Shown here piece after piece: positions 2,742 through 53,835 of a stretch of DNA of 64,000 bases. The position numbers were made by a program, and so were the translations under genes. The stretch's first letter is position 1, and each line of letters opens with the position of its first letter. Source of the DNA: Gammaproteobacteria bacterium. GTDB taxonomy: Bacteria > Pseudomonadota > Gammaproteobacteria > CBDBNL01 > G965229495. A model generated the notes under the pieces. The model was not told where the DNA came from. It did not search any database and saw nothing but the letters and a program-made list of their open reading frames with translations. Location of the stretch: NCBI GenBank assembly GCA_965229495.1, contig OZ245880.1:65937-129936 (forward strand), in the 5' to 3' direction.

Positions 2742-5558
2742 ATGGTGTCAGAGTTAATTGATTTAATACCAGCAAGTATACAGAGCTTTGCCCACGCTCG
2801 ACACCAGCAATGGCGGCAATCCGAGCCGCGTTTGCGCCATTGGCTGGATCAAGCCAGTCAACAGCAGTTATTGGGTTATTGTCGTCTGCTGTGCTTGAGC
2901 GATTATGCCGATAGCATCTGGCGGCGCACGCCCGAACCCTTGAGCTTGCTCGACGATAAATTCGAAACCGTACCCGAATGCGACGGAGTTGAGTTAAACC
3001 TCACCGCCGCCGAGCGCGAGCTCCGCCGCTGGCGCCAGCGCAATCAGTTTCGGCTGATCTATCAGGACCTGCTACCAAGCGCGAATAGCGAGCAGAGCTT
3101 CGTTACAACAACTAGCAGGCTGAGCGTCGACGCCGAGCGCGTGTTGTTGGCAGCGTTGCGCCTAGCTCAGGCTCATCAATTAGCTAAGCCCGCCAGCGCT
3201 CCCGTGCGCGAATGGGCTCAGCAACCGCTACAGGCCATAGCTATGGGCAAGCTCGGCGCGGGCGAACTCAACCTGTCCTCGGACGTCGATTTGATCCTGG
3301 TTATGTCCACCAGCAACGCCGAAGCCGGAGTGCAAGACCGCGTCGAGCGCTTTTATCGGCGCGTGGCGCAGGTGTTTCTTGATTTGGTGCACAAGAGCAC
3401 GGCCGATGGTCGCGTGCTCCGCGTCGATTTACGCTTGCGACCTTTTGGCGCCAGCAGCTCTATAGTTATCGGCCAACGCGCGCTGCTGGATTATTACCGG
3501 CAACACGGCCGCGAGTGGGAGCGTTACGCGCTTTTGAAGGCTAGGCTGCTCGGCGCTGGCGAAGGTGGTTCTTGGCTCGACCAGTTGCAGCAATTCGTCT
3601 ATAGACCCTTCCGCGATTTTCGATCGCTAGCGCAACTGCGCAAGTTGCGCCAGCTCATCGCCGAGCAGCCCAGCGACGCCCATAGCTTGGATATCAAACG
3701 CTGCCCAGGTGGCATTCGCGACGCCGAATTCGTCGTCCAAGCGCTGCAGTTGATCAACGGCGGTCGTTATCGCTCGCTGCAGCGGCGCGGCTTTTTGGCG
3801 GCGACGCAGGCTTTGCAAGCCAAGGACTTGCTCAACCCAGAAGAGCGCTCCAGTCTAGACGCCGCCTACCTACTACTACGCCACACCGAGCACAAAATCC
3901 AAGCTCGCGCCGACCGCCAAAGCCATACTTGGCCGCAAGACCGTACGTTGCAAGAGCGCATAGCTTTCGCGCTTGGCTTGCGAGCGGATGAACTCGAGCA
4001 GCGCATCGCTGCGAGTAGACAAACAGTGCTCGGGCTCATAGATAAATACCTTGGCACTGGGGGGCAGACATTAGCACCGCCGTCGCCAGACACTGCCAGC
4101 GCCCCCGACTTGAGCGACCTCAAAGGTAAATTTGCCCACCGCCAGCAGGAGTTTCGGAGTTTGTGTCAGCAAGCGCAGCAATTATGTGCACGCGGTGATA
4201 TTGGCGCCGACTACGGCGAGCCGTTGAAAAAATTACTCGCGAGCATAGCTGGGCGCGCTAACTATCTAGCCCTACTGCTTGAGGCACCACACACTTTAGC
4301 GGTCGCTTTGAATTTGATGCAGCGGAGCGCTTGGTGCGCCGCGCAGATTTGCCAGCACCCTTTGATCCTGGAGCATTTCGCCGTGCGCTCGGGTGCGCAC
4401 CCCGAGCGCGGTAGCTTCGCCGATCTCCAGCGTCATTACCTTGATTATCTAAGTGGCTTACTCGCAGAAATTCCTGATAACGATTTAGAGGCGCAGATGG
4501 ACGCGCTCCGCCGCTTCAAGCTGCATAGCCATATGCACGTCGCGCGCTTGGATCTATTGCAGGATTTACCGCTGATGTTGGTCTCCGATCATCTTAGCGC
4601 CATCGCCGACGCCCTGCTCACAGCCGCCGCCAGCATGGCTTGGCAGCAATTACTCGTCAAGCTCGGAGTGCGGCCGAGCTTGGCGGACGGCACTCCAGCC
4701 AGCATCGATAACTTCATGGTGCTGGGGATGGGCAAACTCGGCGGCATCGAGCTCGGTTACGGCTCCGATTGCGACATGGTCTTTCTTTACGACCCACCGA
4801 GCGCTGCGGCTTGCCTGGTCAGCGCCAACGCTCCCGAGAAGGCGCGCGCGGAGCCTATGAGCAACCAGCAATTCTTTCTGCGCCTGGGGCAGCGGATATT
4901 GCACCTCCTTAGCAGCTACACCACCGCTGGCCGAGTCTTTGCCACCGATCTGCGTTTGCGCCCGCAGGGTAATAAAGGCTTGCTGGTAAGCAATATCGTC
5001 GCCTACGCCGATTATCAGACTAACGAAGCCTGGACTTTCGAGACCCAAGCGCTGACGCGGTCGCGCGTCGTCAGCGCTGGTAGCGCGCTGCGCGCGCGTT
5101 TTGACAGCATTCGCGCCCAGTGCTTGCAGCGAGAGCGTTCACCTCAGCAATTGCAGACCGAGATTGTCGCCATGCGCCAGCGTATCGCCAGTAATAAGGA
5201 TCGGTCTGGACGTGCAGGTTTTGACCTAAAGCTCGGCGCGGGCGGCCTGGTCGATATAGAATTCCTGGTGCAATATCTATTGCTGCAACACGCGCAGCGG
5301 CATCCGAGCATTTACGAACATTCTGATAACTGCCGCCAGCTAGACGTCTTGCTCGCCGAAGGCTTGCTCGACGCCAGCATTGTCGAACAATTGCGCGCTT
5401 GCTGGCTAGAATTACGCCAGTTGGCGCATAGCTGCCAACTGCAATCGACTCAGCCCGAGGTGGACGTGGTCGTAGCCTCGGAACATCGCCCCGCCAGCTG
5501 CGACCAAGTACTCGCTGCCTGGCAGCGGGTTTTCGGCAAGCACTGGAGCAAAACTTAA
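2742..5558 (+). CDS. glnE: Bifunctional glutamine synthetase adenylyltransferase/adenylyl-removing enzyme
   Basis: 938 aa with two nucleotidyltransferase halves (DLRLRPFGASS...; second half GMGKLGG...DLRLRPQG), as in GlnE. Confidence 0.9.
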   Translation: MVSELIDLIPASIQSFAHARHQQWRQSEPRLRHWLDQASQQQLLGYCRLLCLSDYADSIWRRTPEPLSLLDDKFETVPECDGVELNLTAAERELRRWRQRNQFRLIYQDLLPSANSEQSFVTTTSRLSVDAERVLLAALRLAQAHQLAKPASAPVREWAQQPLQAIAMGKLGAGELNLSSDVDLILVMSTSNAEAGVQDRVERFYRRVAQVFLDLVHKSTADGRVLRVDLRLRPFGASSSIVIGQRALLDYYRQHGREWERYALLKARLLGAGEGGSWLDQLQQFVYRPFRDFRSLAQLRKLRQLIAEQPSDAHSLDIKRCPGGIRDAEFVVQALQLINGGRYRSLQRRGFLAATQALQAKDLLNPEERSSLDAAYLLLRHTEHKIQARADRQSHTWPQDRTLQERIAFALGLRADELEQRIAASRQTVLGLIDKYLGTGGQTLAPPSPDTASAPDLSDLKGKFAHRQQEFRSLCQQAQQLCARGDIGADYGEPLKKLLASIAGRANYLALLLEAPHTLAVALNLMQRSAWCAAQICQHPLILEHFAVRSGAHPERGSFADLQRHYLDYLSGLLAEIPDNDLEAQMDALRRFKLHSHMHVARLDLLQDLPLMLVSDHLSAIADALLTAAASMAWQQLLVKLGVRPSLADGTPASIDNFMVLGMGKLGGIELGYGSDCDMVFLYDPPSAAACLVSANAPEKARAEPMSNQQFFLRLGQRILHLLSSYTTAGRVFATDLRLRPQGNKGLLVSNIVAYADYQTNEAWTFETQALTRSRVVSAGSALRARFDSIRAQCLQRERSPQQLQTEIVAMRQRIASNKDRSGRAGFDLKLGAGGLVDIEFLVQYLLLQHAQRHPSIYEHSDNCRQLDVLLAEGLLDASIVEQLRACWLELRQLAHSCQLQSTQPEVDVVVASEHRPASCDQVLAAWQRVFGKHWSKT

Positions 5559-5562
5559 ATCA

Positions 5563-6819
5563 ATGATCAGAAAACGTTTATTCATTTGGGCTTTGATGGC
5601 GAGTTCGGCGCTACCTTTGGCAGCAGAGGAAGCTTTGTTGCTGGATCGCATCGTGGCAGTGGTCAACGACGAGATCATCTTACTCTCTGAACTCGAGCAG
5701 CGCGCTCAGCAGCAACGCGGACAAGTTATCGACGACGAGCAGTTGCTGCAGGCGATGATCCTGGAGAATATTCAATTGCAGCTCGCCCGACGCTTTAACA
5801 TCAGCGTTGCCAACAGCGAGGTCAACGCCATTCTTGAGGAGCAGGCTTTGCGCGCTGGCTTGGCTCTGAGCGTTTATCTACGCGCGCTGGAAGGCGAGGG
5901 CGCTGATTTGCTAGCGCTGCGCGCCAACATCCAGCGTCAGCTCTTATTGCAGAAAACCCGTGGTCAATTGCTCGGGCGTAGCATCAGCGTGCGCGACGAC
6001 GAGATCGAAGCCTTCTTCGCCACGCGCGCCGCCGCCGAGGCTTTCGGCGTCGAATACAAGATCGGCTACATCGGCGCTGACGCCGAGCACGAGGAGCTGG
6101 TGCAAGGAATATACGAAGACTTGCAAGAGCAGAACTTCAGCGTCGTGAGCGCGCGTTGGCAAGACGACGAGCGCTTGCGTGTGCGTTCTTTGGACTGGCA
6201 ACCAGCGGTGCAACTACCGACGCTATTCGCCGAATTGGCGCCAGGCTTGCAAGTGGGGAGCACGCACGCGCCGGTGCGCAATAACCGTGGTTGGAACCTG
6301 GTTACATTGCTCGATCAGCGCCTGGCTTATAGCAGCATTAACGAATATCAGATCACTAGCATCAGCTTGGCGAGCAATCCAGTGCGCGACCGACAAGCCA
6401 CCGAGGCTTTGGCGCGTGAACTTTATCAACAGCTACAAGCCGACGCCAGCGATATCGTTAGCTTGGCGCGTACTTATTCTGACGACGCCTTGAGCGCTGG
6501 CAGCGGCGGCGACCTCGGTTGGCGCGCTAGCAAGCCCGCCAGCTTTGCCAATGCCTTCTGGGAGCGATTGACGCGAGCTCAGGTCGGCGATTTACTACTG
6601 AACAACGCCGATGGCGATTGGCAAATAGTCCTACTGCGAGACGTTCGTAGTAGCGACAACAGCTTGGAGCGCGCCAACGCCTCGGCGCGCCAAGTGATCT
6701 TCGAGACCAAAATGCGCCAAGCGCTACCCAAATGGTTAGAAGAAGTGCGCAATCAAGCCTACGTCGAAGTAAAAATCGACGCTCTAGCTGGCGATAACTC
6801 TGGGACGGTGGAGTTGTAG
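5563..6819 (+). CDS. Periplasmic chaperone / peptidyl-prolyl isomerase, SurA-like
   Basis: Signal peptide MIRKRLFIWALMASSALPLAAEE. The N-terminal segment LDRIVAVVNDEIILLSEL resembles the SurA N-domain, and the C-terminus has a parvulin-like SGGDLGW segment. Confidence 0.6.
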   Translation: MIRKRLFIWALMASSALPLAAEEALLLDRIVAVVNDEIILLSELEQRAQQQRGQVIDDEQLLQAMILENIQLQLARRFNISVANSEVNAILEEQALRAGLALSVYLRALEGEGADLLALRANIQRQLLLQKTRGQLLGRSISVRDDEIEAFFATRAAAEAFGVEYKIGYIGADAEHEELVQGIYEDLQEQNFSVVSARWQDDERLRVRSLDWQPAVQLPTLFAELAPGLQVGSTHAPVRNNRGWNLVTLLDQRLAYSSINEYQITSISLASNPVRDRQATEALARELYQQLQADASDIVSLARTYSDDALSAGSGGDLGWRASKPASFANAFWERLTRAQVGDLLLNNADGDWQIVLLRDVRSSDNSLERANASARQVIFETKMRQALPKWLEEVRNQAYVEVKIDALAGDNSGTVEL

Positions 6820-7039
6820 GGGGTAGTTACACCCGTAGCGATGGTAGCACTGGCATAAGTCATGATGCTACTTTGATTTTTTCTGCTTCAGAGCCAGATG
6901 GCGAGCCAAGCCAATCTGCCGAAGCTGGTTATCTTGCCGCTGTCAGTGTGAATACGGAAGGTACAGGCAACTTGCCAGCTAATAGCGACGATGCAAGCGC
7001 GAATTTGGATTTATCATAATCCGAGGATTTGTTCGGTTT

Positions 7040-7150
7040 TTGAAGTAATATATGCGTGAGGGGGATGTGCTTATGAATAACCAAAAACAAGCAATTGCCC
7101 TAAAGCTGGTTTTGTTGCTGCTGTTGAGCGGCGCGCATAGTGTGGGCATA
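7040..7150. repeat. Direct repeat copy 1 (~90 bp). Encodes a lipoprotein-leader-like fragment MNNQKQAIALKLVLLLLLSG... (ORF 7073-7192).
   Basis: About 85% identical to 8160-8265; both copies carry ...gtgcttatgaataaccaa(a/g)aacaagcaattgccc...ttgttgctgctgttg... Confidence 0.7.
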
Positions 7151-7224
7151 CGAGCTTGCATTAGTATTGCGCTACCGGTCGCGCGCTTGTAGAGCTGGGA
7201 GTGAATTTATAGAGGAGAATAATT

Positions 7225-7869
7225 ATGCCATATACAAATAAACTACGTGTGCAGCAAGATTATGAGCGCGGACGGCTGGCGGTAGACGTTTACAAGCCTA
7301 AAGATGAGCGTGGGGTGGGCCGCTGGAAGCTTACTCTTTCTGGTGATGACGAGGCTACTGGCTTGAAAGCGCAGGCTTATAAATCACTAGCAACTGGCGA
7401 GGTGGTTATAGCTTTTGGTGGTACTGATTCGCTAGGTAATGGCTTTGGTAAGGATTTGCTCGCTGATTTGGGCTTTGTGTTTGGCTATCTGCAAAAGCAA
7501 CTCAGAGCTGGGCTAGATTTTTGCGCTGAAGTGATTGATATTGAGGTGCAGTCTGGTCGTTATCAAGGGATTGCAAAAGAAGACGTATTAAAAAATATAT
7601 CGCTTGCTGGGCATAGCCTGGGAGGCGGTATAGCGCAGCTAGCGGGTTACATATTTGGGATTGCTGGCACGACGATGGATGCTCCTGGAGTTAAGCGCAT
7701 TTGTAAAGATGATAGCTTTAAGAATTATGTGGATCATTTGCGCGGGCACTATGCGCATTTGGTACAAACCAAGTTGGGGGAGGGAAAAGCAGATTTTAGG
7801 TGCTTTACTGAATTTGGTAGTGCAATCAATTTGGTAGGTGGTAAGCATCACGGTAAAAAATTAGAATGA
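7225..7869 (+). CDS. Lipase class 3 (alpha/beta-hydrolase, GHSLGG nucleophile elbow), putative secreted lipase or effector
   Basis: 214 aa; VVIAFGGTDSLGNGFGKDLLADLG followed by GHSLGGGIAQLAGY matches the lipase_3 core. Strong SD agaggag lies 8 nt upstream, in a low-GC islet. Confidence 0.6.
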   Translation: MPYTNKLRVQQDYERGRLAVDVYKPKDERGVGRWKLTLSGDDEATGLKAQAYKSLATGEVVIAFGGTDSLGNGFGKDLLADLGFVFGYLQKQLRAGLDFCAEVIDIEVQSGRYQGIAKEDVLKNISLAGHSLGGGIAQLAGYIFGIAGTTMDAPGVKRICKDDSFKNYVDHLRGHYAHLVQTKLGEGKADFRCFTEFGSAINLVGGKHHGKKLE

Positions 7870-8090
7870 ATAATGTTAAAGGTTTTTTCTCTATGTTAGC
7901 TTCTATCGCAGTGGTGGCTATTTTTGGACCTGTCACAATAGCTTATCCATCAGCTATTATGATGGCTGGGAATAATTTTTTTTCAAGCAGCACGATAAGG
8001 GTGTTATGCTGGAAGCTTTGCAGCAGCGATATAAATCTTTATGAAATACTAACCTTATTAATTGAACAGGAACATGCTCCTTGCTTCTAA
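7866..8090 (+). CDS. Small secreted or membrane protein, translationally coupled to the lipase (candidate immunity or partner)
   Basis: 74-aa ORF overlapping the lipase stop by 4 nt, with the hydrophobic N-terminus MNNVKGFFSMLASIAVVAIFGPV. Confidence 0.3.
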   Translation: MNNVKGFFSMLASIAVVAIFGPVTIAYPSAIMMAGNNFFSSSTIRVLCWKLCSSDINLYEILTLLIEQEHAPCF

Positions 8091-8159
8091 CTTAATTGTT
8101 AGTGCTTTTTTATCAAGAGTAAATTCTGCTTTGGCGCTTGGCTGGGAGATTGATAGTCT

Positions 8160-8265
8160 GGTTGGAGTAATATATGCAACAGGGTTGTGCTTATGAATAA
8201 CCAAGAACAAGCAATTGCCCGAAGGCTGTTTTTGTTGCTGCTGTTGGGCTTAGTGGGCTGCGCGC
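8160..8265. repeat. Direct repeat copy 2 (~90 bp)
   Basis: Matches 7040-7150 and carries an intact lipobox leader MNNQEQAIARRLFLLLLLGLVGC. Confidence 0.7.
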
Positions 8266-8430
8266 ATAATGCGGGCGGTGGTGGGGGGTTCTGCTGGGCT
8301 TGCGAATGATGGTAATGGCATCGTAGCTGAGGGGATTGTGCTGAGTGAGGCTGGTGGCGTTCAAGTCGCCGTCTACTATTATGGGGCAGTCGCGGTTGGT
8401 GAGTTGGAGCTGGATTGTTGTCGGCATTAG
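8193..8430 (+). pseudogene. Small lipoprotein gene interrupted by a frameshift at a G6 homopolymer tract
   Basis: ATG 8193 gives leader + lipobox LVGC + AHNAGGGGG, then a stop at 8307. Shifting frame at the gggggg run reads through SAGLANDGNGIVAEGIVLSEAGGVQVAVYYYGAVAVGELELDCCRH to ~8430. Confidence 0.35.
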
Positions 8431-8972
8431 TGGTTTTGAATGAGCTCGATTAAGTCTGCGAGGTCGGCGGCTGGGGTTTTATTGCCGCTTTGGAAGCGGA
8501 TGTGCGCTGTGCTCAGGTAGAGATGCTCGCGTTCGCTACGGAGCTTGGTCAAGATTGCTCGGCGCTTGGCGCTGTCGGCGGCAGGGTCGGAACTGCTGGC
8601 ACCGAGCAGGGGTCTATTGCTGCAACTGCGTAGGCGCGCGAGTTGTACCTCTATATCGACCTCGACGTATATTACTGTGCTGTGGGCGCGGAGCAGCTCG
8701 CGGTTTTGCTCTCTGAGGACGACACCGCCGCCAGTGGCGATGACGCAGTCGTGCTTCTGCAACAATAGCTGCAGTTGTTGGCTTTCGCGCTCGCGAAAGC
8801 CCTCCTCGCCTTCGGCGTCAAAAATCCAGCCGATATCGACTCCAGTGGCCTTTTCAATCTCTTGGTCGCTATCGTAAAAATCATAAGCCAAAGCCCGCGC
8901 CAGCTTATTGCCGAGCGTCGACTTGCCAGCGCCCATGCTGCCTATTAGGGTTATTCGTGTCGGCATTGGCAA
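8427..8972 (-). CDS. aroK: Shikimate kinase
   Basis: 181 aa; Walker A GSMGAGKSTLGNKLA; typical AroK. Confidence 0.85.
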   Translation of the reverse strand: MPMPTRITLIGSMGAGKSTLGNKLARALAYDFYDSDQEIEKATGVDIGWIFDAEGEEGFRERESQQLQLLLQKHDCVIATGGGVVLREQNRELLRAHSTVIYVEVDIEVQLARLRSCSNRPLLGASSSDPAADSAKRRAILTKLRSEREHLYLSTAHIRFQSGNKTPAADLADLIELIQNH

Positions 8973-9075
8973 TGATGAAGCGATATCATGGTACGGTTAT
9001 AGAGGGCATACTATAGCACTGCGGTTAAGTTGCCAGCGTCGGTTTGGCGAAGCAGTGATTGCTTTTGCTATTCCA

Positions 9076-9104
9076 GTTGACATGGCGCACGTATAAGCGT
9101 ACGA
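9076..9104 (+). promoter_or_regulatory. Putative sigma70 promoter of yefM-yoeB (TTGACA-N17-TACGAT) with an embedded imperfect palindrome
   Basis: ttgacatggcgcacgtataagcgtacgat lies about 28 nt upstream of the yefM ATG. The cgtataagcgtacg dyad could be the antitoxin operator. Confidence 0.4.
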
Positions 9105-9131
9105 TGGCAGAAACAACTTGAGGAGCAAATT

Positions 9132-9374
9132 ATGACTATTCTGAATGCCACTGAGGCGCGCGCTAATTTGTACGGGCTGATTGACAAAACTGCGGAGAAT
9201 CATCAGCCGATTATGATTACCAGCAAGCGTAGCAACGCGGTGCTGATTGCGGAGGAAGACTGGAACGCTATAGCCGAGAGCCTTTATCTGTCTTCGTTTC
9301 CGGGCATGGTGGAGTCGATCAAGGAGGGAATGCAGGTCGATTTGTCGACTTGCGCTGAGGAACTCGATTGGTGA
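9132..9374 (+). CDS. yefM: Type II antitoxin, Phd/YefM family
   Basis: 80 aa, MTILNATEARANLYGLIDKTAE...; overlaps the downstream toxin by 7 nt. Confidence 0.85.
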   Translation: MTILNATEARANLYGLIDKTAENHQPIMITSKRSNAVLIAEEDWNAIAESLYLSSFPGMVESIKEGMQVDLSTCAEELDW

Positions 9375-9634
9375 ACTGGCGCTTGCTCTACACTAGGCAA
9401 GCGCAAAAAGACGCTAAGAAACTAGCTGCAGCCGGACTGAAACCGAAGGCCGAGAAGCTACTCGCGCTGCTCAGAGAGAACCCTTACGCTAATCCCCCAC
9501 CGTACGAAAAACCGGTCGGCCAACTCGCCGGCGCCTATTCGCGGCGAATAAATATCCAGCACAGGCTGGTCTACCAAGTCTACGAAGAGCTAAGCACAGT
9601 AAAGGTTATTCGCTTGTGGACGCATTACGAATGA
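9368..9634 (+). CDS. yoeB: Type II toxin, YoeB/Txe family mRNA interferase
   Basis: 88 aa; RINIQHRLVYQV...IRLWTHYE matches the YoeB C-terminus. Confidence 0.85.
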   Translation: MVNWRLLYTRQAQKDAKKLAAAGLKPKAEKLLALLRENPYANPPPYEKPVGQLAGAYSRRINIQHRLVYQVYEELSTVKVIRLWTHYE

Positions 9635-9991
9635 TGACAATAGCGCCCATAGAAGCAGCCTTGTACTCATAAAACCCGAAAACTCTATGGATAAATTAGC
9701 CATGTGCGCGCCGGATTTGGCGGCTAGTAATATCTAGAAGATTGCTGAGTTTTTTTCGCATTGCGTTACCGAGGCGCACGGCGCTGATGGCGAGCTGCAG
9801 CGCAAGATCGATTGGGACTATACATCTAGGATGCATACGCGATCAATGCCCGGTCTTCAACCAATGGCTCAATAAAATCGAAGCACTCGCGCCCACTAAC
9901 CAATAACATCTAGAATCACCAGACACAATAGGCACAGATAAGCATTGCACCAATCTGCGTTTATCCGTGATCATCTTTGCTTCCTACACCA

Positions 9992-10894
9992 ATGCCCAAT
10001 AAATTCGCCCACTTCCCCACCCTTGAAGACTACGTTGGCAACACCCCGCTCGTGCGCTTGCAGCGCTTGGTGCAAAACCCCAGCAGTGTCGTCCTGGCAA
10101 AGCTCGAAGGCAACAACCCGGCTGGCTCGGTGAAAGACCGACCAGCGTTGAACATGATCCGCGCGGCAGAGGTACGCGGCGAAATACAGCCCGGCGATTG
10201 CTTAATAGAGGCGACCTCGGGCAACACCGGCATAGCGCTCGCTATGGTCGCCGCCGTTCGTGGCTACAAAATGATCCTCATCATGCCGACCAATTCCAGC
10301 GAAGAGCGCAAAATCACCATGCGCGCTTACGGCGCCGAGCTCATAGAAGTAAGCAAAGAAGAGGGCATGGAAGGCGCGCGCGATCTCGCCCTTGCCATGG
10401 AGGCGCAGGGACAGGGCAAAATACTTAACCAATTCGCCAACCCAGACAACCCAGCCCAGCACTACCAAAGCACCGCCGTCGAAATTTGGCAGCAAACCGC
10501 TGGCAGCGTCACCCACTTCGTATCTTCCATGGGCACCACTGGCACCATCGTCGGCTCCAGCCGTTACTTCAAAGAGCAGAACCCTAACATTCAAATAATC
10601 GGCCTGCAACCAGCCAGCGATGCCGAAAAGATCCCCGGCATTCGCCGCTGGCCGCCGGAGTACCTACCCAGCATCTACGACGCCAGCAATATCGACGAGA
10701 TCGCCTACATCTCGCAAAGTCAAGCCGAAAGCACTGCCAGGCTACTAGCGCAAAAAGAAGGTCTCTTCATTGGCGTGTCCGGCTCTGCCGCCATCAGCCA
10801 CGCCATCAATATTGCCAACGAGCAAGATAACACAGTAGCCGTAGCCATAGCCTGCGATCGCGGCGACCGTTATCTCTCCACTGGCGTCTGGTAA
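9992..10894 (+). CDS. cysM: Cysteine synthase B (O-acetylserine sulfhydrylase B)
   Basis: Near-collinear with E. coli CysM (NTPLVRLQRL...LEGNNPAGSVKDRPALNMI...GDRYLSTGVW). Start taken at MPNKF; the ORF-track start at 9977 is also possible. Confidence 0.85.
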   Translation: MPNKFAHFPTLEDYVGNTPLVRLQRLVQNPSSVVLAKLEGNNPAGSVKDRPALNMIRAAEVRGEIQPGDCLIEATSGNTGIALAMVAAVRGYKMILIMPTNSSEERKITMRAYGAELIEVSKEEGMEGARDLALAMEAQGQGKILNQFANPDNPAQHYQSTAVEIWQQTAGSVTHFVSSMGTTGTIVGSSRYFKEQNPNIQIIGLQPASDAEKIPGIRRWPPEYLPSIYDASNIDEIAYISQSQAESTARLLAQKEGLFIGVSGSAAISHAINIANEQDNTVAVAIACDRGDRYLSTGVW

Positions 10895-11194
10895 GACAGC
10901 CTTTTATTCAACAAAAAACATCAACAACACTGTGCCGCTGGAGCACAACGCACTTCCAGCAAAGCTTTCTCTCAATTATTACCTGCCCAAGCTACATTGA
11001 TGCAACAGCCACATCAAAGCAATAAATGACTGCCCCCACCATAAGCAAAGCTGGCGCTACAGCCGCTGTAGAACCCCATGTCAAATTATGTACGAGTGGT
11101 ACCAAAAAGGGTATTGTTAATTGAATATAGTTCCAATATATTTTTGATATATTTTTCAATGCCTTATCAGCAGAGAATCTATACCTAATTAAGA

Positions 11195-11599
11195 ATGCCA
11201 AAACTTTTAGACTATTTGACCGTTCCGTTGGCAATTATACGAAAGGTGCCAACTACGAAACGATTGGTTTTTGTCGCCATAATCCTGCTTGTAGTCAGCG
11301 AGTCCTTTGCTCTATTATTTAATTTATTCGGTGAATTGCTTAGCTACTTGGCAGCAATTGGGATTTTTGCGGTCTATTTGTACTGCGGTAGAAAAGCTCG
11401 ACAAAATGCCAAGGCAACTTTCTATTTTCTACTACCCTGCTTACTATTTACCGTTATTCCATTTGTCTATAACTTCTGGTCTTCAGAGGACGCTTTCTCG
11501 TGGTTTACTTTTATTTGGAATAGCCTGCCATTTGCATTCAGCTTCCTACTACCTGTTCTTTTGCTAATGTGGGTGTACTACAAGCTACCAAACGATTAA
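11195..11599 (+). CDS. Hypothetical small membrane protein (about 4 TM), low GC
   Basis: 134 aa, strongly hydrophobic, in an AT-rich patch immediately upstream of the TIR-STAND gene. Overlaps the antisense ORF 10992-11234, which is probably spurious. Confidence 0.3.
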   Translation: MPKLLDYLTVPLAIIRKVPTTKRLVFVAIILLVVSESFALLFNLFGELLSYLAAIGIFAVYLYCGRKARQNAKATFYFLLPCLLFTVIPFVYNFWSSEDAFSWFTFIWNSLPFAFSFLLPVLLLMWVYYKLPND

Positions 11600-11639
11600 G
11601 CCGTTACGCCGTACTCTGGCTCACTGCTATGGCTAGCTG

Positions 11640-11725
11640 TTGGATAGCCTAAGCATCGTTTATCGAACCACAGATGCACACAGATAAACACAGATAGCAG
11701 AAGAGGCTAGCGAAGCACGACCCCC
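11640..11725. repeat. Dispersed MITE/REP-like repeat, L module copy (reverse orientation)
   Basis: ...gatgcacacagataaacacagatagcagaagagg(c/t)tagcgaagcacg... recurs at 14715-14780 in the same orientation; the L module recurs in opposite orientation at 53665-53710 and 56070-56110. Confidence 0.7.
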
Positions 11726-11831
11726 TGCCTCCTACCAACTAAAAATCGGCGCTCCCAGTTACAATCTGTGCTTGCATTTACCAAGCACGGATTGAAGCCA
11801 AAATAACCCAAGCCTCGCACCCCCAAAACCC

Positions 11832-14582
11832 ATGAGCAAAATATTTATCAGCTACAGCCATAAAGACGAAATCTGGAAAGATCGTTTGCGAGAGCAATTA
11901 GGTGCATTAGCTCGTGAAGGCTACTTCTCGGTCTGGGATGATCGGCAAATTGACCTAGGCGGCGACTGGTTTGCAGAAATTAAGCGCGAATTAAACCAAG
12001 CTAAAGTTGCTGTCATGCTCGTCAGCGCCAGCTTTCTCAATTCAAGTTTCATATTGACCGAAGAAATTCCCATCATGCTCCGCCGCAGGAAACAAGAGGG
12101 TATGCTACTAATCCCTTTAGTCATAAGACCCTGTGCTTGGCAAGATATACCCTGGCTTAGCGTCATCCCAGGCGGGTATAAAGATAACGTACCTTTATCA
12201 AAGTTGAGCAAACATAAACGAGAGGAAGCCCTCGCGGAATTAACCAGAAAAATCAAAGTCCGCATTGATAAGGCACCCACCACCCAAACCCCCACCATCC
12301 TCAGCGACCGCCTACCCACCGTCAAGGGTAAATTCTTTGGTCGTGAACAAGAATTGCAACTACTCGACGACGCTTGGCGTAGCGAGCAAAGCACCATCGT
12401 CGAGTTTGTCGCCTCCGGCGGCACCGGCAAAACCAAGCTGCTACGCCATTGGCTCGACCGCTCTATGGCTGATAAAGCCATGGGAATCAACGCGGTCATC
12501 GCTTGGTCTTTCTACTCGCAAGGCGCCAGCGAAGACAAGCAAATTTCCTCCAGGCTGTTCTTCGACCACGCCCTCGCCGAGCTCGGCTCACAACTTACAG
12601 AGTTCAAAACTGAGGAAGCCCGTGGCGAACACTTGGCAAAATTGCTGCGTCAGCACCGCTGCCTGCTAATCCTCGACGGTCTGGAACCACTACAACACGC
12701 CACTTCAGCCAACCGTGGTGAACTCAAAGACCGCGCCCTGCGGCAAATGCTCAGGACCCTGGCGCTCGACAACCAAGGACTCTGCGTCATCACCACGCGC
12801 ATCGCCGTCGACGAGCTCAAAGATCGCCAACCCCAAGTCATCCAGAAAGAACTCGATAACCTCCAAGCAGCAGACGCCGTCGAGTTACTCAAATACCTCC
12901 AAGTCCAAGGCACCGATGAAGAGCTCCAAGCAGCAGCACAAGAATATAGCTGCCACGCGCTCTCGGTCAGCTTACTCGGTAACCTCTTGCACAAACTCCA
13001 CGGCGGCGACATCCGTAAACGCGACCGAGTCCCCGATCTCGCAGACAGCGCTAGCGTAGACAAAGACAGCCGCCATGCCTTCAAAATCATGCAAGCCTAC
13101 GAGCGCTGGTTTAGCGAAGATAAGCAATACAGCGCCGAACTCGCCCTGCTCCGACTGCTCGGTCTCTTCGACCATCCTATCGAACTAGATGTTCTACAAG
13201 TATTGCAGCAGGCGCAAATCCCTCAGCTCACCGAGGGTATCAAACCCAACGCTTGGAGCAGTGCCATCGCCGCGCTCCGCGACGACCACCACCTGCTCGC
13301 CCAAGCCAACAATCCCCAAGACGACCAACTCGACTGCCACCCGCTCATCCGCGCCTACTTCGCCCACCAGCTACAAAATCAAGCCCCAGACGCTTGGCAA
13401 GCCGCACATACAAAGCTCTATGACTACTACAAAGACCTTCAAAGCAAAGAACAACCCGATACCCTCGCAGAAATGCAGCCGCTCTTTCGCGCCGTCGCCC
13501 ACGGCTGCGCCGCTGGCCTCCACCAGCAAGCGCTGATAGAAGTCTACTGGCTCCGTATTCAGCGTTCTAGCAAATACTACATGTGGCATCAACTTGGCGC
13601 TTTTAGCGACGATCTAGCAACAGTGGCGCATTTCTTTGCTACTCCGTGGCATACTCCAGCGCCGAGTTTGCCCTCAAATTACCAAGCCGTAACACTCGGC
13701 TGGGCTGGCTTTTGCTTACGCGCCCTCGGTCGCCTGCGCGAAGCCCAGCAGCCTATGCAGGCGAGCGAAGAAATGGCGGCTGAGCAAAAAGACTGGAGAA
13801 ATGCCGCTCAAGCCGCCAGCAACCTCAGCGAACTGCAACTCACCCTCGGCGAAGTCGAAGCCGCCGTCGCCAGCGCCGCGCGCAGCGTCGGCCACGCCGA
13901 CCGCTCCGAGAACTTATTCCAGCGCATGGCTAGACGCACCGCCCACGCCAATGCCCTGCATCAATACGGCGACCAAGACGCCGCGCTTGCGCTCTTCCAA
14001 GCAGCCGAAGAATTGCAAAAGCAATTACAGCCTGAATACCCGCAGCTCTATTCGCTGCCAGGATTTCGCTACTGCGACCTGCTGCTGGCGCTGGGCGAAA
14101 GTCAGCAAGTGCTGGATAGAGCTCAGCAAACGTTAGCATGGGTAACCGAAGCGAAATTAGGCTTACTAGATATAGCCTTAGACCACCTTAGCCTTGGCCG
14201 CGCCCACCTCCAGCAGCAACAACCAGAGCCAGCACAACAGCACCTCGACCAAGCCGTCGACGGTCTACGCGCAGCCGGAGCACAACATCACCTACCTCGT
14301 GGCCTCCTCGCGCGCGCCGAGCTCTACCGCCAGCAAGGCGACTACGGCAAAGCCGATCAAGACCTGCAAGAAGTCTTCGAAATCGCCGAGCGCAGCGAAA
14401 TGCAGCTCCACCTCTGCGACTACCACCTAGCCACCGCCAAACTCCTCCGCACCCGCACCGACCAAGCTCTGGATCAAAACCAAGCAACCATCACCCACCA
14501 CCTCCAAACCGCCCAGCAAATCATCGACCAAACCCACTACCACCGCCGCCTCCCCGAACTCAATCACCTCCTCACCACCTAA
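11832..14582 (+). CDS. TIR-NB-ARC-TPR protein (STAND NTPase, NLR-like; candidate antiphage defence sensor/effector)
   Basis: 916 aa with an N-terminal TIR domain (FISYSHKD...VMLVSASFLNSSF). NB-ARC motifs follow: Walker A FVASGGTGKTKL, Walker B CLLILDGLE, RNBS-B GLCVITTR, GLPL-like CHALSVSLLG. The C-terminal ~400 aa is helical and TPR-like. Confidence 0.8.
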   Translation: MSKIFISYSHKDEIWKDRLREQLGALAREGYFSVWDDRQIDLGGDWFAEIKRELNQAKVAVMLVSASFLNSSFILTEEIPIMLRRRKQEGMLLIPLVIRPCAWQDIPWLSVIPGGYKDNVPLSKLSKHKREEALAELTRKIKVRIDKAPTTQTPTILSDRLPTVKGKFFGREQELQLLDDAWRSEQSTIVEFVASGGTGKTKLLRHWLDRSMADKAMGINAVIAWSFYSQGASEDKQISSRLFFDHALAELGSQLTEFKTEEARGEHLAKLLRQHRCLLILDGLEPLQHATSANRGELKDRALRQMLRTLALDNQGLCVITTRIAVDELKDRQPQVIQKELDNLQAADAVELLKYLQVQGTDEELQAAAQEYSCHALSVSLLGNLLHKLHGGDIRKRDRVPDLADSASVDKDSRHAFKIMQAYERWFSEDKQYSAELALLRLLGLFDHPIELDVLQVLQQAQIPQLTEGIKPNAWSSAIAALRDDHHLLAQANNPQDDQLDCHPLIRAYFAHQLQNQAPDAWQAAHTKLYDYYKDLQSKEQPDTLAEMQPLFRAVAHGCAAGLHQQALIEVYWLRIQRSSKYYMWHQLGAFSDDLATVAHFFATPWHTPAPSLPSNYQAVTLGWAGFCLRALGRLREAQQPMQASEEMAAEQKDWRNAAQAASNLSELQLTLGEVEAAVASAARSVGHADRSENLFQRMARRTAHANALHQYGDQDAALALFQAAEELQKQLQPEYPQLYSLPGFRYCDLLLALGESQQVLDRAQQTLAWVTEAKLGLLDIALDHLSLGRAHLQQQQPEPAQQHLDQAVDGLRAAGAQHHLPRGLLARAELYRQQGDYGKADQDLQEVFEIAERSEMQLHLCDYHLATAKLLRTRTDQALDQNQATITHHLQTAQQIIDQTHYHRRLPELNHLLTT

Positions 14583-14624
14583 GCTACAGCACCAAACCAC
14601 CCCTCAGCAGCGAAGCTTGGCCGG

Positions 14625-14850
14625 CATGTAGCGCCGAGTTGTACTCGGCAGGAGGCGAGTTTACGAGCCTCCCCACCACTCCACGTTCATCCCAGCACCT
14701 CAACCTAAACCAAAGCATCATTTAACCACAGATGCACACAGATAAACACAGATAGCAGAAGAGGTTAGCGAAGCACGGTGCCTTGGGAGCGCGTGGCGTC
14801 TCGCCCGCCGTGTAAACAGTGAATCCAATAGGTTCGGCATCTAACCCAAA
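14625..14850. repeat. Composite repeat: double-hairpin element (gccgagttgtactcggc + ggaggc...gcctcc) then L and R modules of the dispersed repeat
   Basis: Direct repeat of 15196-15365 flanking the small ORF 14956-15186. Contains palindromes; the R module is ...ggagcgcgtggcgtctcgcccgccgtgtaaacagtgaa... Confidence 0.65.
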
Positions 14851-14955
14851 CACCAGCCAATCCACCCTCCAGCCGCTCTCCAATTTCAGCTTCCCAGTTG
14901 TTGCAATAACATCTCGCATAAGTTAGACTACTAACTCAACCACTCATAAAGTAAC

Positions 14956-15186
14956 ATGAACGCCATAGTCTTCGACACCCACCTGTTTGTTAGCGAGCTG
15001 AAAGTAGCAGGCTTTAACGATAAACAGGCCGAGGCTGTAGTCAACACCATAAGAAAAGCGCACAAAGCAGCAGATATCGCCACCAAAGCTGATCTGCGTG
15101 AATTGGAATATCGCTTAACGATCCGCGTCGGGACAATGCTAGCGGTTGCCGTCGGCGCACTCGCAGTACTCATAAAAGTCCTGTAG
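14956..15186 (+). CDS. Small coiled-coil protein, DUF1640-like
   Basis: 76 aa, MNAIVFDTHLFVSELKVAGFNDKQAEAVVN...ATKADLRELEYRL..., typical of the DUF1640 family; sits between repeat copies. Confidence 0.45.
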   Translation: MNAIVFDTHLFVSELKVAGFNDKQAEAVVNTIRKAHKAADIATKADLRELEYRLTIRVGTMLAVAVGALAVLIKVL

Positions 15187-15195
15187 CTGCGCTGG

Positions 15196-15365
15196 TGGAG
15201 CGCCGAGTTGTACTCGGCAGGAGACGCCCGCATGGGCGTCTCCCAAAAAGCACCTTCTTAAACTAAACCAACAACTTGCAGCAAGCACGGTGCCCTAGGA
15301 GCGCGGGCGTCTCGCCCGCCGTGTAAACAGTGAACCCGTAGGGTTCGGCTTTTGGGCAAATAAGG
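15196..15365. repeat. Second copy of the double-hairpin + R-module repeat
   Basis: gcgccgagttgtactcggcaggagacgcccgcatgggcgtctcc ... gcacggtgccctaggagcgcgggcgtctcgcccgccgtgtaaacagtgaacc. Confidence 0.65.
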
Positions 15366-15454
15366 TTACTTGAGCAGCGGGGGTTAATAGAGCTGGATTT
15401 TTAGTAGAGTGCATAATTGAGCAAAGCACCATAGCCGACTGCGAGCCTCTCAGT

Positions 15455-15780
15455 CGATCCGATTCACTGCTATTGCTGGCTCTGATGATTGCTTCAGCAA
15501 TTTGTGCCGTAGCTGGGTGGGGTTGGAAGGATGGCCTGCGGCGCTTTTATACGGCGGGCGAGAGGGTCGCGCGCCCGGGAAACCGCGCCCAGGCATAATC
15601 CAGCAAAGCTCTATGGTCTATTATCTACTCGCACTATTCTGATGCACTGCTGTTGCTAGCTACTTGGGTGGCTCAAGCGGTTTGTGCTTTGATTATGTTG
15701 GGTTGGAAGTATGGCCTTCGGCGCTTTTTACACGGCGAGCGAGACGCTCGCGCTCCCAGGCATAATCCAGTGTAGTGGGT
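15455..15780. repeat. Two diverged tandem units (~145 bp each) related to the R module
   Basis: Unit 1 ends ...ggcctgcggcgcttttatacggcgggcgagagggtcgcgcgcccgggaaaccgcgcccaggcataatccagc. Unit 2 ends ...ggccttcggcgctttttacacggcgagcgagacgctcgcgctcccaggcataatccagtg. These are not CRISPR-like (no uniform repeat/spacer structure). Confidence 0.6.
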
Positions 15781-28487: not shown

Positions 28488-30044
28488 GTGCAGCTAATAT
28501 TGCAGTCCTTAGCGGCGCTGGTCTTGGGCGCGCTGCTGGTGCTGGGATTTGCTCCCTTCAATTACTGGTGGGCGTACACGGCGGCACTGGTGGCGTTCAC
28601 CATCTTGCTGCAGTACCAAAGCCCGGGGGTCGCGGCTTGGCTGGGGCTGTTGCTCGGCGTTGGTCAGTTCGGGATTGGTACCTCTTGGGTTTACGTCAGC
28701 ATCTACAACTTCTCTGCCGCTGGCAGCGGCACCGCCAGTGCGCTCACCGCTTTGCTCGTGCTTTATCAAGCCTTGTTCATCGCACTGGCGTGTTGGCTGT
28801 ACGCCAAGCTCAGCCACAAGCACCTAAAGCAAAGCGCGCACCACCAAAGCATAATTCCGGCCCTGCTGCTCTTCGGTAGCTTGTGGCTGCTGGCTGAAAT
28901 TCCACGCAGCCATCTACTCAATGGCTTTCCCTGGTTACTAACTGGTTACGCCTTCTTCGACACGCCATTGACTGGCTGGGGCAAACTCGGCGGCGTTAGC
29001 GCCACTGGCGCCGCCGCCATCTTGATCGTAGTATTGCTCAGCTTCATCGTCCAGCGCGCGCCTTTGCTGGGCTTGCGCGCCGTGAAAATGCGCAGCTTGC
29101 TAGCGCTACTGGCGATAGGCTTGTTGCTGGTAACCGGTGGCGCCTTGCGCGACACCTTGCGCTGGCGCCCGCTCAGCGACGACGGTCACACTTTTGCGCT
29201 CATTCAAGGCAACATCAACCAAGCCGACAAATGGCGCCGCGACAAGCGCGGCGAAATCGTCGCGCGCTACGAGCGCTTGCTAGAGCAGGCTTGGCAGCGC
29301 AGCGACGTCATCGTACTGCCCGAAGTGGCGCTGCCTTTTCACCTGCACCAGAACTACGACTGGTACCAATCCTGGCAGCAGCGCGCGCTGGAAGACAACA
29401 AAACGCTCGTTGTCGGCGTGCTCACAGCAGACTCCGAGCGCCGTAATTACAACAGCGTGCTCGGCCTCGGCGCCAAGGGCGATTTCACCGAGAACATCTA
29501 CCATAAGAAAATACTCGTGCCTTTTGGCGAGTATTTGCCGCTACCGCCAGGCTTGAGCAAATTAGTGCGCAACCTGGCGAATTTTTCCATGAGCGCAGGG
29601 CCGCCAGACCAAGCTCCGCTTATTAGTCAACACGGAGCTCTAGCGCCCTTAGTTTGTTATGAGATTGCCTTTGATGCCTACACCGCGCGCCAAGCGCGCA
29701 CTGCCAACGCCATAGTAACGATCAGCAACGACTCCTGGTTCGGCCGATCGCTCGGCCCTGAGCAGCACGCGCAGATCGCGCGGATGCGTTCTATAGAAAA
29801 TGAAACCTACGTCCTCCGCACCACCAGCACTGGCATCAGCTTCGCCAGCGACCCTAGCGGCAAAGTCATCAGCAGCATCGAGCCTTGGCAAGAAGGCATA
29901 GCCTACGGCAAATACTTCCAAGCCAGCACGACCGACGCCACACCATTCTCGCGCTACGGCTTCTGGCCCATCTACACCCTACTGCTACTAATCGCCGCCA
30001 CCAGCGCCACAGCTCTGCGCCAAGGCTCGGCATCAAGCCCTTAA
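28488..30044 (+). CDS. lnt: Apolipoprotein N-acyltransferase
   Basis: 518 aa; N-terminal multi-TM region plus C-terminal CN-hydrolase domain (VVLPEVALP...). Confidence 0.85.
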   Translation: MQLILQSLAALVLGALLVLGFAPFNYWWAYTAALVAFTILLQYQSPGVAAWLGLLLGVGQFGIGTSWVYVSIYNFSAAGSGTASALTALLVLYQALFIALACWLYAKLSHKHLKQSAHHQSIIPALLLFGSLWLLAEIPRSHLLNGFPWLLTGYAFFDTPLTGWGKLGGVSATGAAAILIVVLLSFIVQRAPLLGLRAVKMRSLLALLAIGLLLVTGGALRDTLRWRPLSDDGHTFALIQGNINQADKWRRDKRGEIVARYERLLEQAWQRSDVIVLPEVALPFHLHQNYDWYQSWQQRALEDNKTLVVGVLTADSERRNYNSVLGLGAKGDFTENIYHKKILVPFGEYLPLPPGLSKLVRNLANFSMSAGPPDQAPLISQHGALAPLVCYEIAFDAYTARQARTANAIVTISNDSWFGRSLGPEQHAQIARMRSIENETYVLRTTSTGISFASDPSGKVISSIEPWQEGIAYGKYFQASTTDATPFSRYGFWPIYTLLLLIAATSATALRQGSASSP

Positions 30045-30064
30045 CTTTCAAACAAATTGCCATT

Positions 30065-30951: not shown

Positions 30952-31494
30952 ATGATAAAAGATGGAACTGGTGGTGGCAATACCATAACTGGATTAAATT
31001 TCGAGAAAAAATCTGACATAGTCGAGCTTCTTAAGCAGATTCCAGGCTACGATGTCAGGCTAAAAGGTGGCAATAATTATCACGAAATATATTATGCTGG
31101 TATTCTTGTCGCCAAGTGTTACAAGAAGCATGACTTTTATAAGTATTTCCTAGAAAAAGAGCATGGTATCTACTGGCGGCAATATATTTCTCGCCAATTA
31201 CTTCCAGATAGTGCTTTACTCATTATTGTGCGGGAGACTTTGTTTATCATTGAGATAAAATACCAACAGGTTGCAGGCTCTGTCGACGAAAAATTGCAAA
31301 CTTGTGATTTTAAGCGCAAGCAATATCTCAAGCTAGTTTCACATCTCGGCATAAAAGTAGAATACGTTTATGTTTTGAGCGATTTTTTCAACAAAGAAGA
31401 GTATTCTGATGTATTAGCTTACATACACAGCGTAAATTGTCATTATAAATTCAATCAATTACCTTTATCTTGGTTAGGGCTGCCCTATGACTAA
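30952..31494 (+). CDS. Putative type II restriction endonuclease (PD-(D/E)XK)
   Basis: 180 aa, AT-rich. PD...EIK arrangement (LLPDSALLIIVRETLFIIEIKYQ). Sits 30 nt downstream of the MTase on the same strand. Confidence 0.5.
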   Translation: MIKDGTGGGNTITGLNFEKKSDIVELLKQIPGYDVRLKGGNNYHEIYYAGILVAKCYKKHDFYKYFLEKEHGIYWRQYISRQLLPDSALLIIVRETLFIIEIKYQQVAGSVDEKLQTCDFKRKQYLKLVSHLGIKVEYVYVLSDFFNKEEYSDVLAYIHSVNCHYKFNQLPLSWLGLPYD

Positions 31495-53641: not shown

Positions 53642-53835
53642 GCGCCAAAATCCAAGCCAATCGGTGTTTATCTGTGTGCATCTATGCTTCGATACGCGAT
53701 GCTTGATCGAGCCGGGGGTGAGCCCTAACTGGCCTTGGTTGGGTGCTGCACTAACGTGGGCTTATTTGCCCATATGTTGGTCTCAAGCGCTCACTACACG
53801 GCGGGCGAGACGCCACGCGCTCCTAAGCCGGTGTT
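53412..53835. repeat. Duplicated segment copy 1: sufU 3' end + MITE-like L...R repeat
   Basis: Re-occurs at 55822-56250 (about 85% identical, with a ~50-bp indel). Confidence 0.75.

Follow-up and report, generated by a model that had tools for sequence, protein, structure and literature searches.

A single gene in a 64,000-nucleotide stretch of gammaproteobacterial DNA (GenBank assembly GCA_965229495.1, contig OZ245880.1, positions 65,937 to 129,936; termed here the window, always at its full length) encodes a 916-residue protein with the domain order TIR, NB-ARC-type STAND NTPase and MalT-like TPR solenoid. The protein is probably a single-polypeptide NLR-like switch of the antiviral-STAND or plant TNL type; in proposing this mechanism and an antiphage role we reason from what is known of Avs proteins, of ROQ1/RPP1 and of ZmTNP-IIa, a plant TNP. 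Its STAND-TPR part belongs to a family of thousands of clusters in which the N-terminal effector is exchangeable, and among near-identical strains the gene itself occurs as an intact, a disrupted or a missing allele.

Domain architecture of the 916-residue protein

The gene and the parts of its product are located as follows.

11832..14582, plus strand: TIR / NB-ARC-type STAND / TPR gene, ATG start, 916 aa, stop codon 14580-14582, from the list of open reading frames (ORFs)
11832..12281, plus strand: TIR effector domain, residues 1-150, with the codon of the candidate catalytic Glu78 at 12063-12065
12297..13391, plus strand: STAND NTPase of the NB-ARC / AP-ATPase type, residues ~156-520
12429-12431, plus strand: Walker A, K200
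12675-12677, plus strand: Walker B, D282
12792-12800, plus strand: TTR motif
13338-13340, plus strand: MHD-like CHP motif, H503
13449..14579, plus strand: C-terminal TPR-like alpha-solenoid, presumed sensor, residues ~540-916

The protein was aligned with 40 homologues of 50-83% identity (alignment A1), which begin alike with MSKIFISYSH and are conserved roughly evenly over the whole length. A tblastn search of the window found no second copy of the gene, and an NCBIfam scan of the protein gave no useful match. The guanine-plus-cytosine (GC) content of the gene, 0.558, is close to the window mean of 0.553 and is low only in the TIR-coding part (0.45); a step from 0.45-0.49 to 0.57 at nucleotide ~12300 coincides with the boundary between TIR and NTPase. 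A promoter and terminator scan of 11100-15300 returned counts equal to the shuffled expectation and is uninformative.

At the N-terminus, Pfam TIR_2 (PF13676) matches residues 4-106 with 54.4 bits (cut-off 28) and is found in all 40 homologues, and Pfam TIR (PF01582) reaches 24.6 bits against a cut-off of 21.3. The best defence-database match of this domain is the ThsB-TIR model of PADLOC (90.6 bits, residues 1-153). Searching the PDB with the lone TIR sequence gave no match and a profile built from 12 sequences (A3) was required, in which E78 pairs, with a one-residue insertion, with the glutamate of 'yEL' in the bacterial TIR 7uxr and of 'dEL' in AtTIR 3jrn. Glu78 is kept in 39 of the 40 homologues and the adjacent Glu77 in 28. 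We take the glutamate of the TIR 'EL' motif, on the alpha-C helix, to be the catalytic position of NADase TIRs, and so the position of E78. Judged by these residues the TIR domain looks catalytically competent and may well be an active enzyme.

The central region holds nucleotide-binding motifs that are each invariant in A1: Walker A G196-G-x-G199-K200-T201 (GGTGKT, 196-201), Walker B L279-x-L281-D282-G283-x-E285 (LLILDGLE, 278-285), T321-T322-R323 of the hhhTTR/RNBS-B type (ITTR, 320-323), a variant at the GLPL position, C-H375-A-L..L-L-G383 (CHALSVSLLG, 374-383), and the MHD-like D501-C-H503-P504 (DCHP, 501-504), an MHD variant that retains the histidine. An assignment to a clade by motifs only is not clean, because the 'DGLE' of Walker B is NACHT-like. 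Profile searches point to NB-ARC, which matches 20 of the 40 members of A1 at E<=1e-3 (best 9e-8) against 7 for NACHT; in the 916-residue protein NACHT scores 17.6 bits, below its cut-off of 26.7, and both NACHT and AAA_22 are weaker than NB-ARC. The bNACHT models of PADLOC gave no match at E<=1. The region has the NBD-HD1-WHD fold (nucleotide-binding, helical and winged-helix domains) of the NB-ARC clade, and in the predicted model it matches the NB-ARC domain of NRC1 and Apaf-1. The NTPase is therefore best called NB-ARC/AP-ATPase-type despite its NACHT-like Walker B.

In the C-terminal region TPR_12 (35 bits) and TPR_8 (30 bits) both exceed their Pfam cut-offs, and TPR_MalT is matched by 27 of the 40 members of A1. 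An AlphaFold2 model made from A1 has a mean predicted local distance difference test (pLDDT) score of 81.2; its helical repeats span residues 545-915, mostly with pLDDT >90, and the solenoid resembles MalT domain III. When the model was compared with the PDB by Foldseek, the top matches were the STAND-TPR protein PH0952 (6mfv, 5.9e-13), Apaf-1 (8e-9) and the core of the TIR-NLR RPP1 (1.8e-8), followed by CED-4, Avs3 (9.8e-8), MalT and NRC proteins. The A1 sequence profile reaches the TPR region of AfsR and residues 14-235 of Roq1. It is because of these Foldseek and A1 profile matches that the three-domain description is correct.

A sequence-only reading of the window had proposed a TIR/NB-ARC/TPR fusion of 916 residues, and this is borne out by the ORF, Pfam, the PADLOC TIR model and the structure matches. 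The Walker A/B, TTR and GLPL-like motifs that it named are present and invariant across the 40 homologues, its enzymatic-type TIR agrees with the conserved and alignable Glu78 as far as sequence can tell, and its NLR/Avs-type logic, a sensor fused to an effector, is supported by the architecture.

Exchangeable effectors and the proposed switch

A protein search returned ~95 distinct sequences at 68-84% identity, and every one that was traced comes from one ENA assembly, ERZ25074195. The source contig has at least four paralogues (P0001, P0037, P0069 and P0087), and two or three are found on several other contigs. Some paralogues are double-TIR proteins, others have a swapped TIR yet are 78-82% identical from residue ~150 on, and a few carry an extra NACHT module or a SEFIR head. 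Contig L029 holds two paralogues 8 kb apart, and it has in common with L019 another conserved position, which lies downstream of a gene for an FMN dehydrogenase. The interval between the two paralogues of L029 (13174-17992) contains two genes for AAA-type ATPases and the reverse transcriptase of a group II intron, and an anti-Pycsar Apyc1-like gene of the metallo-beta-lactamase fold lies 8 kb upstream.

The nearest named relatives come from the filamentous Thiothrix and Thiofilum. A scan of GTDB representatives found relatives of 34-64% identity, all in other phyla, and full-length homologues at 39-45% identity are dispersed over many phyla, among them Desulfobacterota, Nitrospinota, Acidobacteriota, Chloroflexota, KSB1 and others. 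In L001, a metagenome-assembled genome of Desulfobotulus, three consecutive TIR genes (937, 674 and 961 aa) occupy 3781-12778, and the distant homologue is the last of them. An exhaustive search with residues 155-916, against family clusters defined at 50% identity, found 7,550 representatives with E<=1e-3, of which 2,722 also pass E<=1e-30. In the top 150 the alignment spans the entire STAND-TPR part at 39-57% identity (one exception 81%); their N-termini are of this TIR type in 58, other domains in 72, and short or truncated in 20. A domain scan that covered ten of the 72 other N-termini identified an alpha/beta-hydrolase (DUF676/PGAP1-like), a PNP_UDP phosphorylase, another TIR_2 type, SEFIR, a trypsin-like protease, HNH and a calcineurin-like phosphoesterase, besides one weak TIR/NPHP3-like match and two N-termini that remained unmatched. 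The STAND-TPR chassis thus carries interchangeable N-terminal effectors of the conflict type. Exchangeable toxic heads on one sensor chassis are a hallmark of conflict systems.

The mechanism that we favor would run as follows. At rest the protein would be an ADP-bound, autoinhibited monomer. Its TPR solenoid would bind a protein ligand, most plausibly from a phage or another invader, which would free the NB-ARC domain for nucleotide exchange and oligomerization. The clustered TIR domains would then form composite NADase sites around Glu78, and depletion of NAD+, perhaps together with ADP-ribose (ADPR)-type products, would bring about growth arrest or cell death (abortive infection). No partner gene would be needed.

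The last point separates this scheme from one in which the TIR domain, as in Thoeris, makes a messenger (a cADPR isomer or an ADPR conjugate) that activates a separate effector encoded elsewhere. The 90.6-bit ThsB match suggests such signaling, and the TIR domains of plant TNLs signal likewise. However, no ThsA-like or other effector gene adjoins the gene, whose neighbors are a membrane ORF and a DUF1640-like ORF, and no Thoeris-type effector gene is conserved beside the paralogues examined. The close paralogues sit in unrelated neighborhoods among insertion sequence (IS) elements, AAA/PDDEXK genes and a group II intron; moreover, directly toxic domains replace the TIR on the same chassis. A recent study also sets aside the TIR domains of Avs and standalone TIR proteins as likely NAD+-depleting effectors and not signal producers (10.64898/2025.12.03.692087). 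We therefore regard a separate, messenger-driven effector as improbable.

Several results weigh against the favored mechanism or its antiphage role, and we collect them here. In the 916-residue protein NB-ARC scores 22.1 bits (E 1e-4), marginally below the Pfam cut-off of 23.5, so that of the domains named in the sequence-only reading TIR_2/TIR and TPR lie above their thresholds and NB-ARC just under. The Avs/AVAST models of PADLOC 2.0 (types 1-5) match neither NTPase nor sensor at E<=1; matches in this database are confined to TIR-directed models, and the best one outside the TIR, PDC-S27, covers the P-loop with E 0.02. The closest matches of the sensor, MalT and AfsR, are transcription regulators, and the conservation profile of A1 shows no hypervariability in the sensor. 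A sliding comparison with the allele of contig L021, described below, found no window of the gene with a ratio of nonsynonymous to synonymous substitutions (dN/dS) clearly >1; values are <=0.41 save in the last 36 codons, where changes are too few to judge. The gene stands between the housekeeping genes cysM and galE with a Phd/YoeB pair nearby. No known defence system was found in a small sample of ten neighbors of distant homologues at five loci, which yielded only other TIR proteins in L001 and a single weak match to the candidate-system model PDLC01094 in L004, and searches of phage genomes, viral contigs and plasmids gave no full-length relatives. The strong antiphage candidacy once claimed for the gene is accordingly too firm, given that neither an Avs/bNACHT match nor a defence, phage or plasmid context was found.

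Some of these results lend weight to a sensor of identical architecture that is not antiviral, namely a regulated-cell-death, stress or self/non-self sensor of an endogenous or conspecific cue, comparable with fungal NLR allorecognition, plant TNPs or the NLR-like expansions of multicellular bacteria. Besides the missing association with defence islands, phages and plasmids, this idea can appeal to the expansion in one lineage with several paralogues per genome, to genomes rich in WD40, pentapeptide, Sel1, toxin-antitoxin and IS elements, and to the filamentous Thiothrix and Thiofilum as nearest named relatives; plant TNP knock-outs also lack a classical immune phenotype (PMC9806590). Yet the effectors found on the chassis (HNH, protease, PNP, TIR, SEFIR and phosphoesterase) are typical of antiviral STANDs (PMC13581612), and presence or absence at the level of strains is typical of defence genes. 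We regard such a non-antiviral sensor as unlikely. A regulatory STAND like MalT or AfsR, in which the TPR region senses a metabolite, the protein serves as scaffold or regulator and its TIR is an adaptor and not an enzyme, has the sensor matches in its favor, but Pfam detects no DNA-binding domain, 39 of the 40 homologues keep the glutamate at the catalytic position, the chassis is fused elsewhere to nucleases and proteases, and the gene is dispensable between near-identical strains. We give this possibility hardly any credence and retain the toxic, antiviral-type switch as our working model.

Alleles of the locus and the repeats around it

The intergenic elements next to the gene are the following.

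11648..11727, plus strand: repeat A, upstream copy, with three CACAGAT units at 10 bp spacing
14630..14712, plus strand: repeat module C, which begins 48 nt past the stop codon; dispersed and similar to repetitive extragenic palindromic (REP) elements
14710..14785, plus strand: repeat A, downstream direct copy, core 14724-14777
14771..14838, plus strand: repeat module B, core GGCGTCTCGCCCGCCGTGTAAA; overlaps the 3' end of repeat A; dispersed, in both orientations

The direct repeat copies announced by the sequence-only reading (at 11640-11725 and 14715-14800) are real. Repeat A is ~75 nt long, the two copies share one orientation and bound a unit of 3.06 kb, and their cores (11666-11719 and 14724-14777) are identical at 53 of 54 positions, with a 4-nt indel in the extended copies. 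A 41-nt core pattern of repeat A occurs in the window at the two flanking sites only and has zero matches in shuffled sequence. The repeat had also been called dispersed, correctly so, as diverged inverted copies stand at 53660-53704 and 56070-56109 and others on related contigs.

Near relatives of the locus were found by searching with the adjacent housekeeping gene cysM. CysM copies of 94-99% identity occur on many contigs of ERZ25074195, and the window CysM is only 70% identical to those of Oceanospirillum and Marinobacter. Four contigs, L021 to L024, share the upstream flank and diverge downstream of cysM. L021 has a syntenic TIR-STAND-TPR gene of 933 aa between both copies of repeat A. 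In L022 the homology to the window ends 80 nt into the gene, at the start of an rve-type IS. In L023 and L024 the gene is absent and a single repeat A is directly joined to module B. Four further contigs, L025-L028 (CysM 96-98%), have unrelated neighbors. A comparison of relatives had been advised together with the sequence-only reading, and it shows that at 99% CysM identity the gene is present in a divergent form, interrupted by an IS or missing; since it is neither ubiquitous nor syntenic, its accessory nature is supported. More widely, twelve contigs of ERZ25074195 with 34-75x coverage carry identical CysM and differ within a few kb in gene content, which includes IS elements, a laminin-G/PKD gene and the TIR gene. 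The pattern points to a single uncultured gammaproteobacterium that is present as many co-existing strains or has heterogeneous genome copies.

The empty site of L023 and L024 can be traced in detail. Alignments show that its single repeat A matches the upstream copy at the left end and the downstream copy at the right junction, which makes it the exact product of recombination between the direct repeats. It is equally the expected target site prior to a Campbell-type insertion, so that deletion and insertion fit the structure alike. An alternative path to the same structure is a deletion from the B start near the upstream copy (~16 nt, 11712-11727) to the longer B at 15283, which would remove the DUF1640-like ORF as well.

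Window and L021 differ far more in the gene than in cysM. The TIR gene products are 76% identical, with 0.58 synonymous substitutions per site (dS), 0.14 nonsynonymous ones (dN) and dN/dS of 0.24, and dS along the gene ranges from 0.09 to >2, being >1 in the TIR part. In the flanks, CysM is 99% identical (dS 0.13, dN/dS 0.02), Phd/YefM 100% (dS 0.37) and YoeB 95% (dS 0.41, dN/dS 0.06). From this divergent pattern of dS in flank and gene it follows that the allele is a mosaic formed by recombination with paralogues under purifying selection; the gene is intact and not a pseudogene. The pairs of repeat A carry substitutions specific to the haplotype, CACAGATAG/GAGG in the window and CACGGATAG/GAGC in L021. 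Such variants in both copies of a pair indicate concerted evolution, and therefore ongoing exchange between the copies.

With a length of ~75 nt, the same orientation and concerted evolution, the repeats probably act as substrates for homologous recombination, which may delete or re-insert the 3.06-kb unit and exchange segments among paralogues. A different proposal is that the unit is a dedicated mobile cassette and repeat A the attachment site of a site-specific recombinase, in the manner of an integron. The direct repeats lie exactly at the boundaries of the indel, as such a cassette would have it, and the CACAGAT array looks like a protein-binding array, with a spacing of exactly 10 bp that places the units on one helix face. 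The Sel1 gene at 54325-55494, bracketed by longer direct repeats that include repeat A copies, could be read in the same way. On the other hand, the array was not matched in L019 and L020, which carry other paralogues, or in the other loci retrieved by then; modules A, B and C are scattered beside unrelated genes; concerted evolution of the copies is what homologous exchange predicts; L022 lost its gene through an IS instead; and no integrase gene adjoins the unit in the window. The repeat had further been called hairpin-bearing, but its folding z-scores of -1.35 and -0.80 are no better than those of shuffled sequence, and because repeat A lacks a significant hairpin, both this label and the analogy with attC fail. 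Repeat A was rejected on these scores as an attC/integron-type site, and the missing CACAGAT matches likewise ruled out that it always accompanies the gene family. A dedicated cassette is, all told, very unlikely.

The clear hairpin of this region belongs to module C, a perfect 7-bp stem GCCGAGT-tgt-ACTCGGC at 14633-14649 with a second copy at 15199-15226; module C, which has many copies on related contigs, is possibly a terminator. Modules B and C adjoin many unrelated genes and also other TIR-STAND-TPR paralogues. In this genome the repeats that flank the gene are REP-like intergenic modules of an ordinary kind, and as they are present beside unrelated genes they are no mark of a dedicated cassette; acquisition as a cassette, as the sequence-only reading had it, is thus not upheld, given that the empty site fits a deletion equally well. 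The CACAGAT triplet array (11666-11697, and in all copies of repeat A) reads CACAGATGCA CACAGATAAA CACAGATAG with exact 10-bp spacing.

Returning to homologous recombination, a bolder reading is that the TIR-NB-ARC-TPR family of this lineage forms a true NLR repertoire, comparable to the NLR clusters of plants, in which concertedly evolving repeats would drive gain, loss and gene conversion. It draws on the several loci per genome, the dozens of variants of 70-83% identity within one population, the mosaic alleles and the exchange of TIR domains at a fixed linker. We offer it tentatively, as a possibility with the odds against it; if true, the repeats would be part of the diversification mechanism of bacterial immune receptors and not bystanders.

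The 1.2-kb spacer 3' of the gene is a mosaic with at least three further repeat modules, among them C, B and a 180-nt tandem unit at 15458-15728. Its part before galE, 15283-15770, is an array of repeat modules, in which a plus-oriented B (15283-15417) precedes two tandem units of 180 nt that are 73% identical (15458-15548 and 15638-15728). Each unit terminates in an inverted B core and holds a similar ORF of 40-41 codons (…GW.WK.GLRRF…). The Sel1-repeat gene (minus strand; three internal tandem repeats of 108 nt) is the second repeat-bounded gene in the window; its direct repeats of ~170-360 nt (53412-53772 and 55825-56184, 79-93% identical) include inverted copies of modules A and B. A direct repeat of 68 nt (7062-7129 and 8182-8249; 91% identical) brackets a low-GC segment at 7-8 kb (GC 0.44), in which a 214-aa ORF (7225-7869) has no Pfam match.

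Upstream of the gene, the low-GC patch with a small membrane protein described in the sequence-only reading is present (11100-11549, GC 0.31-0.41).

11195-11599: small membrane ORF, 134 aa, ~4 hydrophobic segments

This ORF is retained in strains without the TIR gene and therefore lies outside the module. The downstream ORF of the DUF1640-like type has a frameshift in L021 and is missing next to other paralogues, and neither small ORF was kept as a candidate partner. The Phd/YefM-YoeB toxin-antitoxin pair (9132-9634) stands immediately upstream of cysM, 2.2 kb from the gene, and is kept in L021-L024. Farther away, a gene for an N6/N4 DNA methylase (29885-30922) and, after it, a small PD-(D/E)XK-like ORF (30952-31494) occupy a patch of low GC (0.40), and the two are probably a type II restriction-modification pair. 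A Fic/DOC + DUF4172 protein is encoded at 59752-60864. At 61066-63963 (minus strand) lies the gene of a 965-aa protein with at least 12 WD40 repeats (126-nt periodicity in the DNA) and N-terminal pentapeptide repeats, similar to a 990-aa WD40 protein of L027; it was considered as a second STAND and dismissed for its pentapeptide N-terminus and lack of an NTPase. Strand asymmetry in the window follows coding direction, the coding strand being C- and A-rich: plus-strand genes have a GC skew of ~-0.2 and an AT skew of ~+0.2, and the signs are flipped for the minus-strand genes at 16-21 kb.

Comparison with known systems

Avs1-5 were reportedly described by Gao and colleagues in 2022. Since then Avs7-24 have been added, which are among 198 STAND clades associated with defence in a tree of 589 clades, most of the 198 having TPR-like sensors (Lee et al., Nature 2026; PMC13581612); Avs families detect phage proteins via TPR-like sensors and then oligomerize (PMC13581612). 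Our protein resembles Avs/AVAST in that one polypeptide joins an N-terminal toxic effector, for which TIR is a known option, a STAND NTPase and a large TPR-like C-terminal sensor, in that effectors are swapped on a conserved chassis, and in the Foldseek match to Avs3. The effector-STAND-sensor architecture with exchangeable effectors, which defines the Avs functional class, is found here. It differs in that the PADLOC AVAST and bNACHT models do not match, in its NB-ARC/AP-ATPase motifs and MalT domain III-like sensor, and in that no defence-island or prophage context was found.

Bacterial and fungal TIR-NB-TPR proteins have been noted alongside the plant TNPs, formerly XTNX (Johanndrees et al. 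2022, PMC9806590). Cell death by ZmTNP-IIa (TIR-NBARC-TPR) needs the TIR glutamate and the P-loop and proceeds without EDS1 or a helper pathway (PMC9806590), and the mechanism that we propose is of this kind. Compared by description, TNPs have the same domain order and motif set (P-loop, TTR/RNBS-B, Walker B, GLPL position and MHD), whereas here GLPL reads C-H-A-L and MHD reads C-H-P. ROQ1 and RPP1 differ in their sensor, which is LRR + C-JID and not TPR, and in an output read by an EDS1 + helper-NLR pathway, which bacteria lack.

TIR-II of E. coli (TIR + TPR; ~30% of homologues with an ATPase) is antiphage via its TIR active site (Nat Commun 2024, PMC11350192), and in that study it is the most widespread TIR system, reported also in Caudoviricetes (PMC11350192). 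The likeness is at the level of architecture only, a single-gene TIR + TPR protein with or without an ATPase, which in the case of TIR-II protects by abortive infection; unlike TIR-II, the present family gave no full-length phage matches. The solved structure 9m0n, an 824-aa 'tetratricopeptide repeat protein' with an N-terminal TIR for which we found no publication, matches over the TIR only (E 0.039). Thoeris ThsB, whose model is the best defence-database match of our TIR, is a stand-alone protein with an adjacent ThsA-type effector, whereas here the TIR is fused to STAND-TPR. MalT and AfsR have DNA-binding output domains, and neither they nor PH0952 carry a TIR or another toxic effector.

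The gene had been presented as uncharacterised, and this word fits the family but not the kind, because the architecture is already published for bacteria (PMC9806590, PMC13581612, PMC11350192). Kind and logic are thus established and current concepts remain unchanged. The less ordinary points are how large the unannotated family is and, at the level of the population, the mosaicism of paralogues with repeat-bounded presence and absence. As NTPase and sensor are unrecognised by PADLOC 2.0 in a family of thousands of clusters, their annotation would extend the catalogues of defence systems. The population data are a clean natural example of loss, replacement and shuffling via short intergenic repeats and paralogue recombination, with a series of alleles in which occupied, mosaic and IS-cut forms occur as well as an exactly empty site. 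If the proposed mechanism is right, plant TIR-NLRs and TNPs would have in this protein a compact bacterial counterpart made by one gene, usable to study how NB-ARC couples a TPR sensor to a TIR NADase without helper pathways and to hunt for the trigger. Although the protein fails the sequence tests for Avs1-5, bNACHT and Thoeris as these are modeled in PADLOC, it would work in the way of Avs and TNL proteins.

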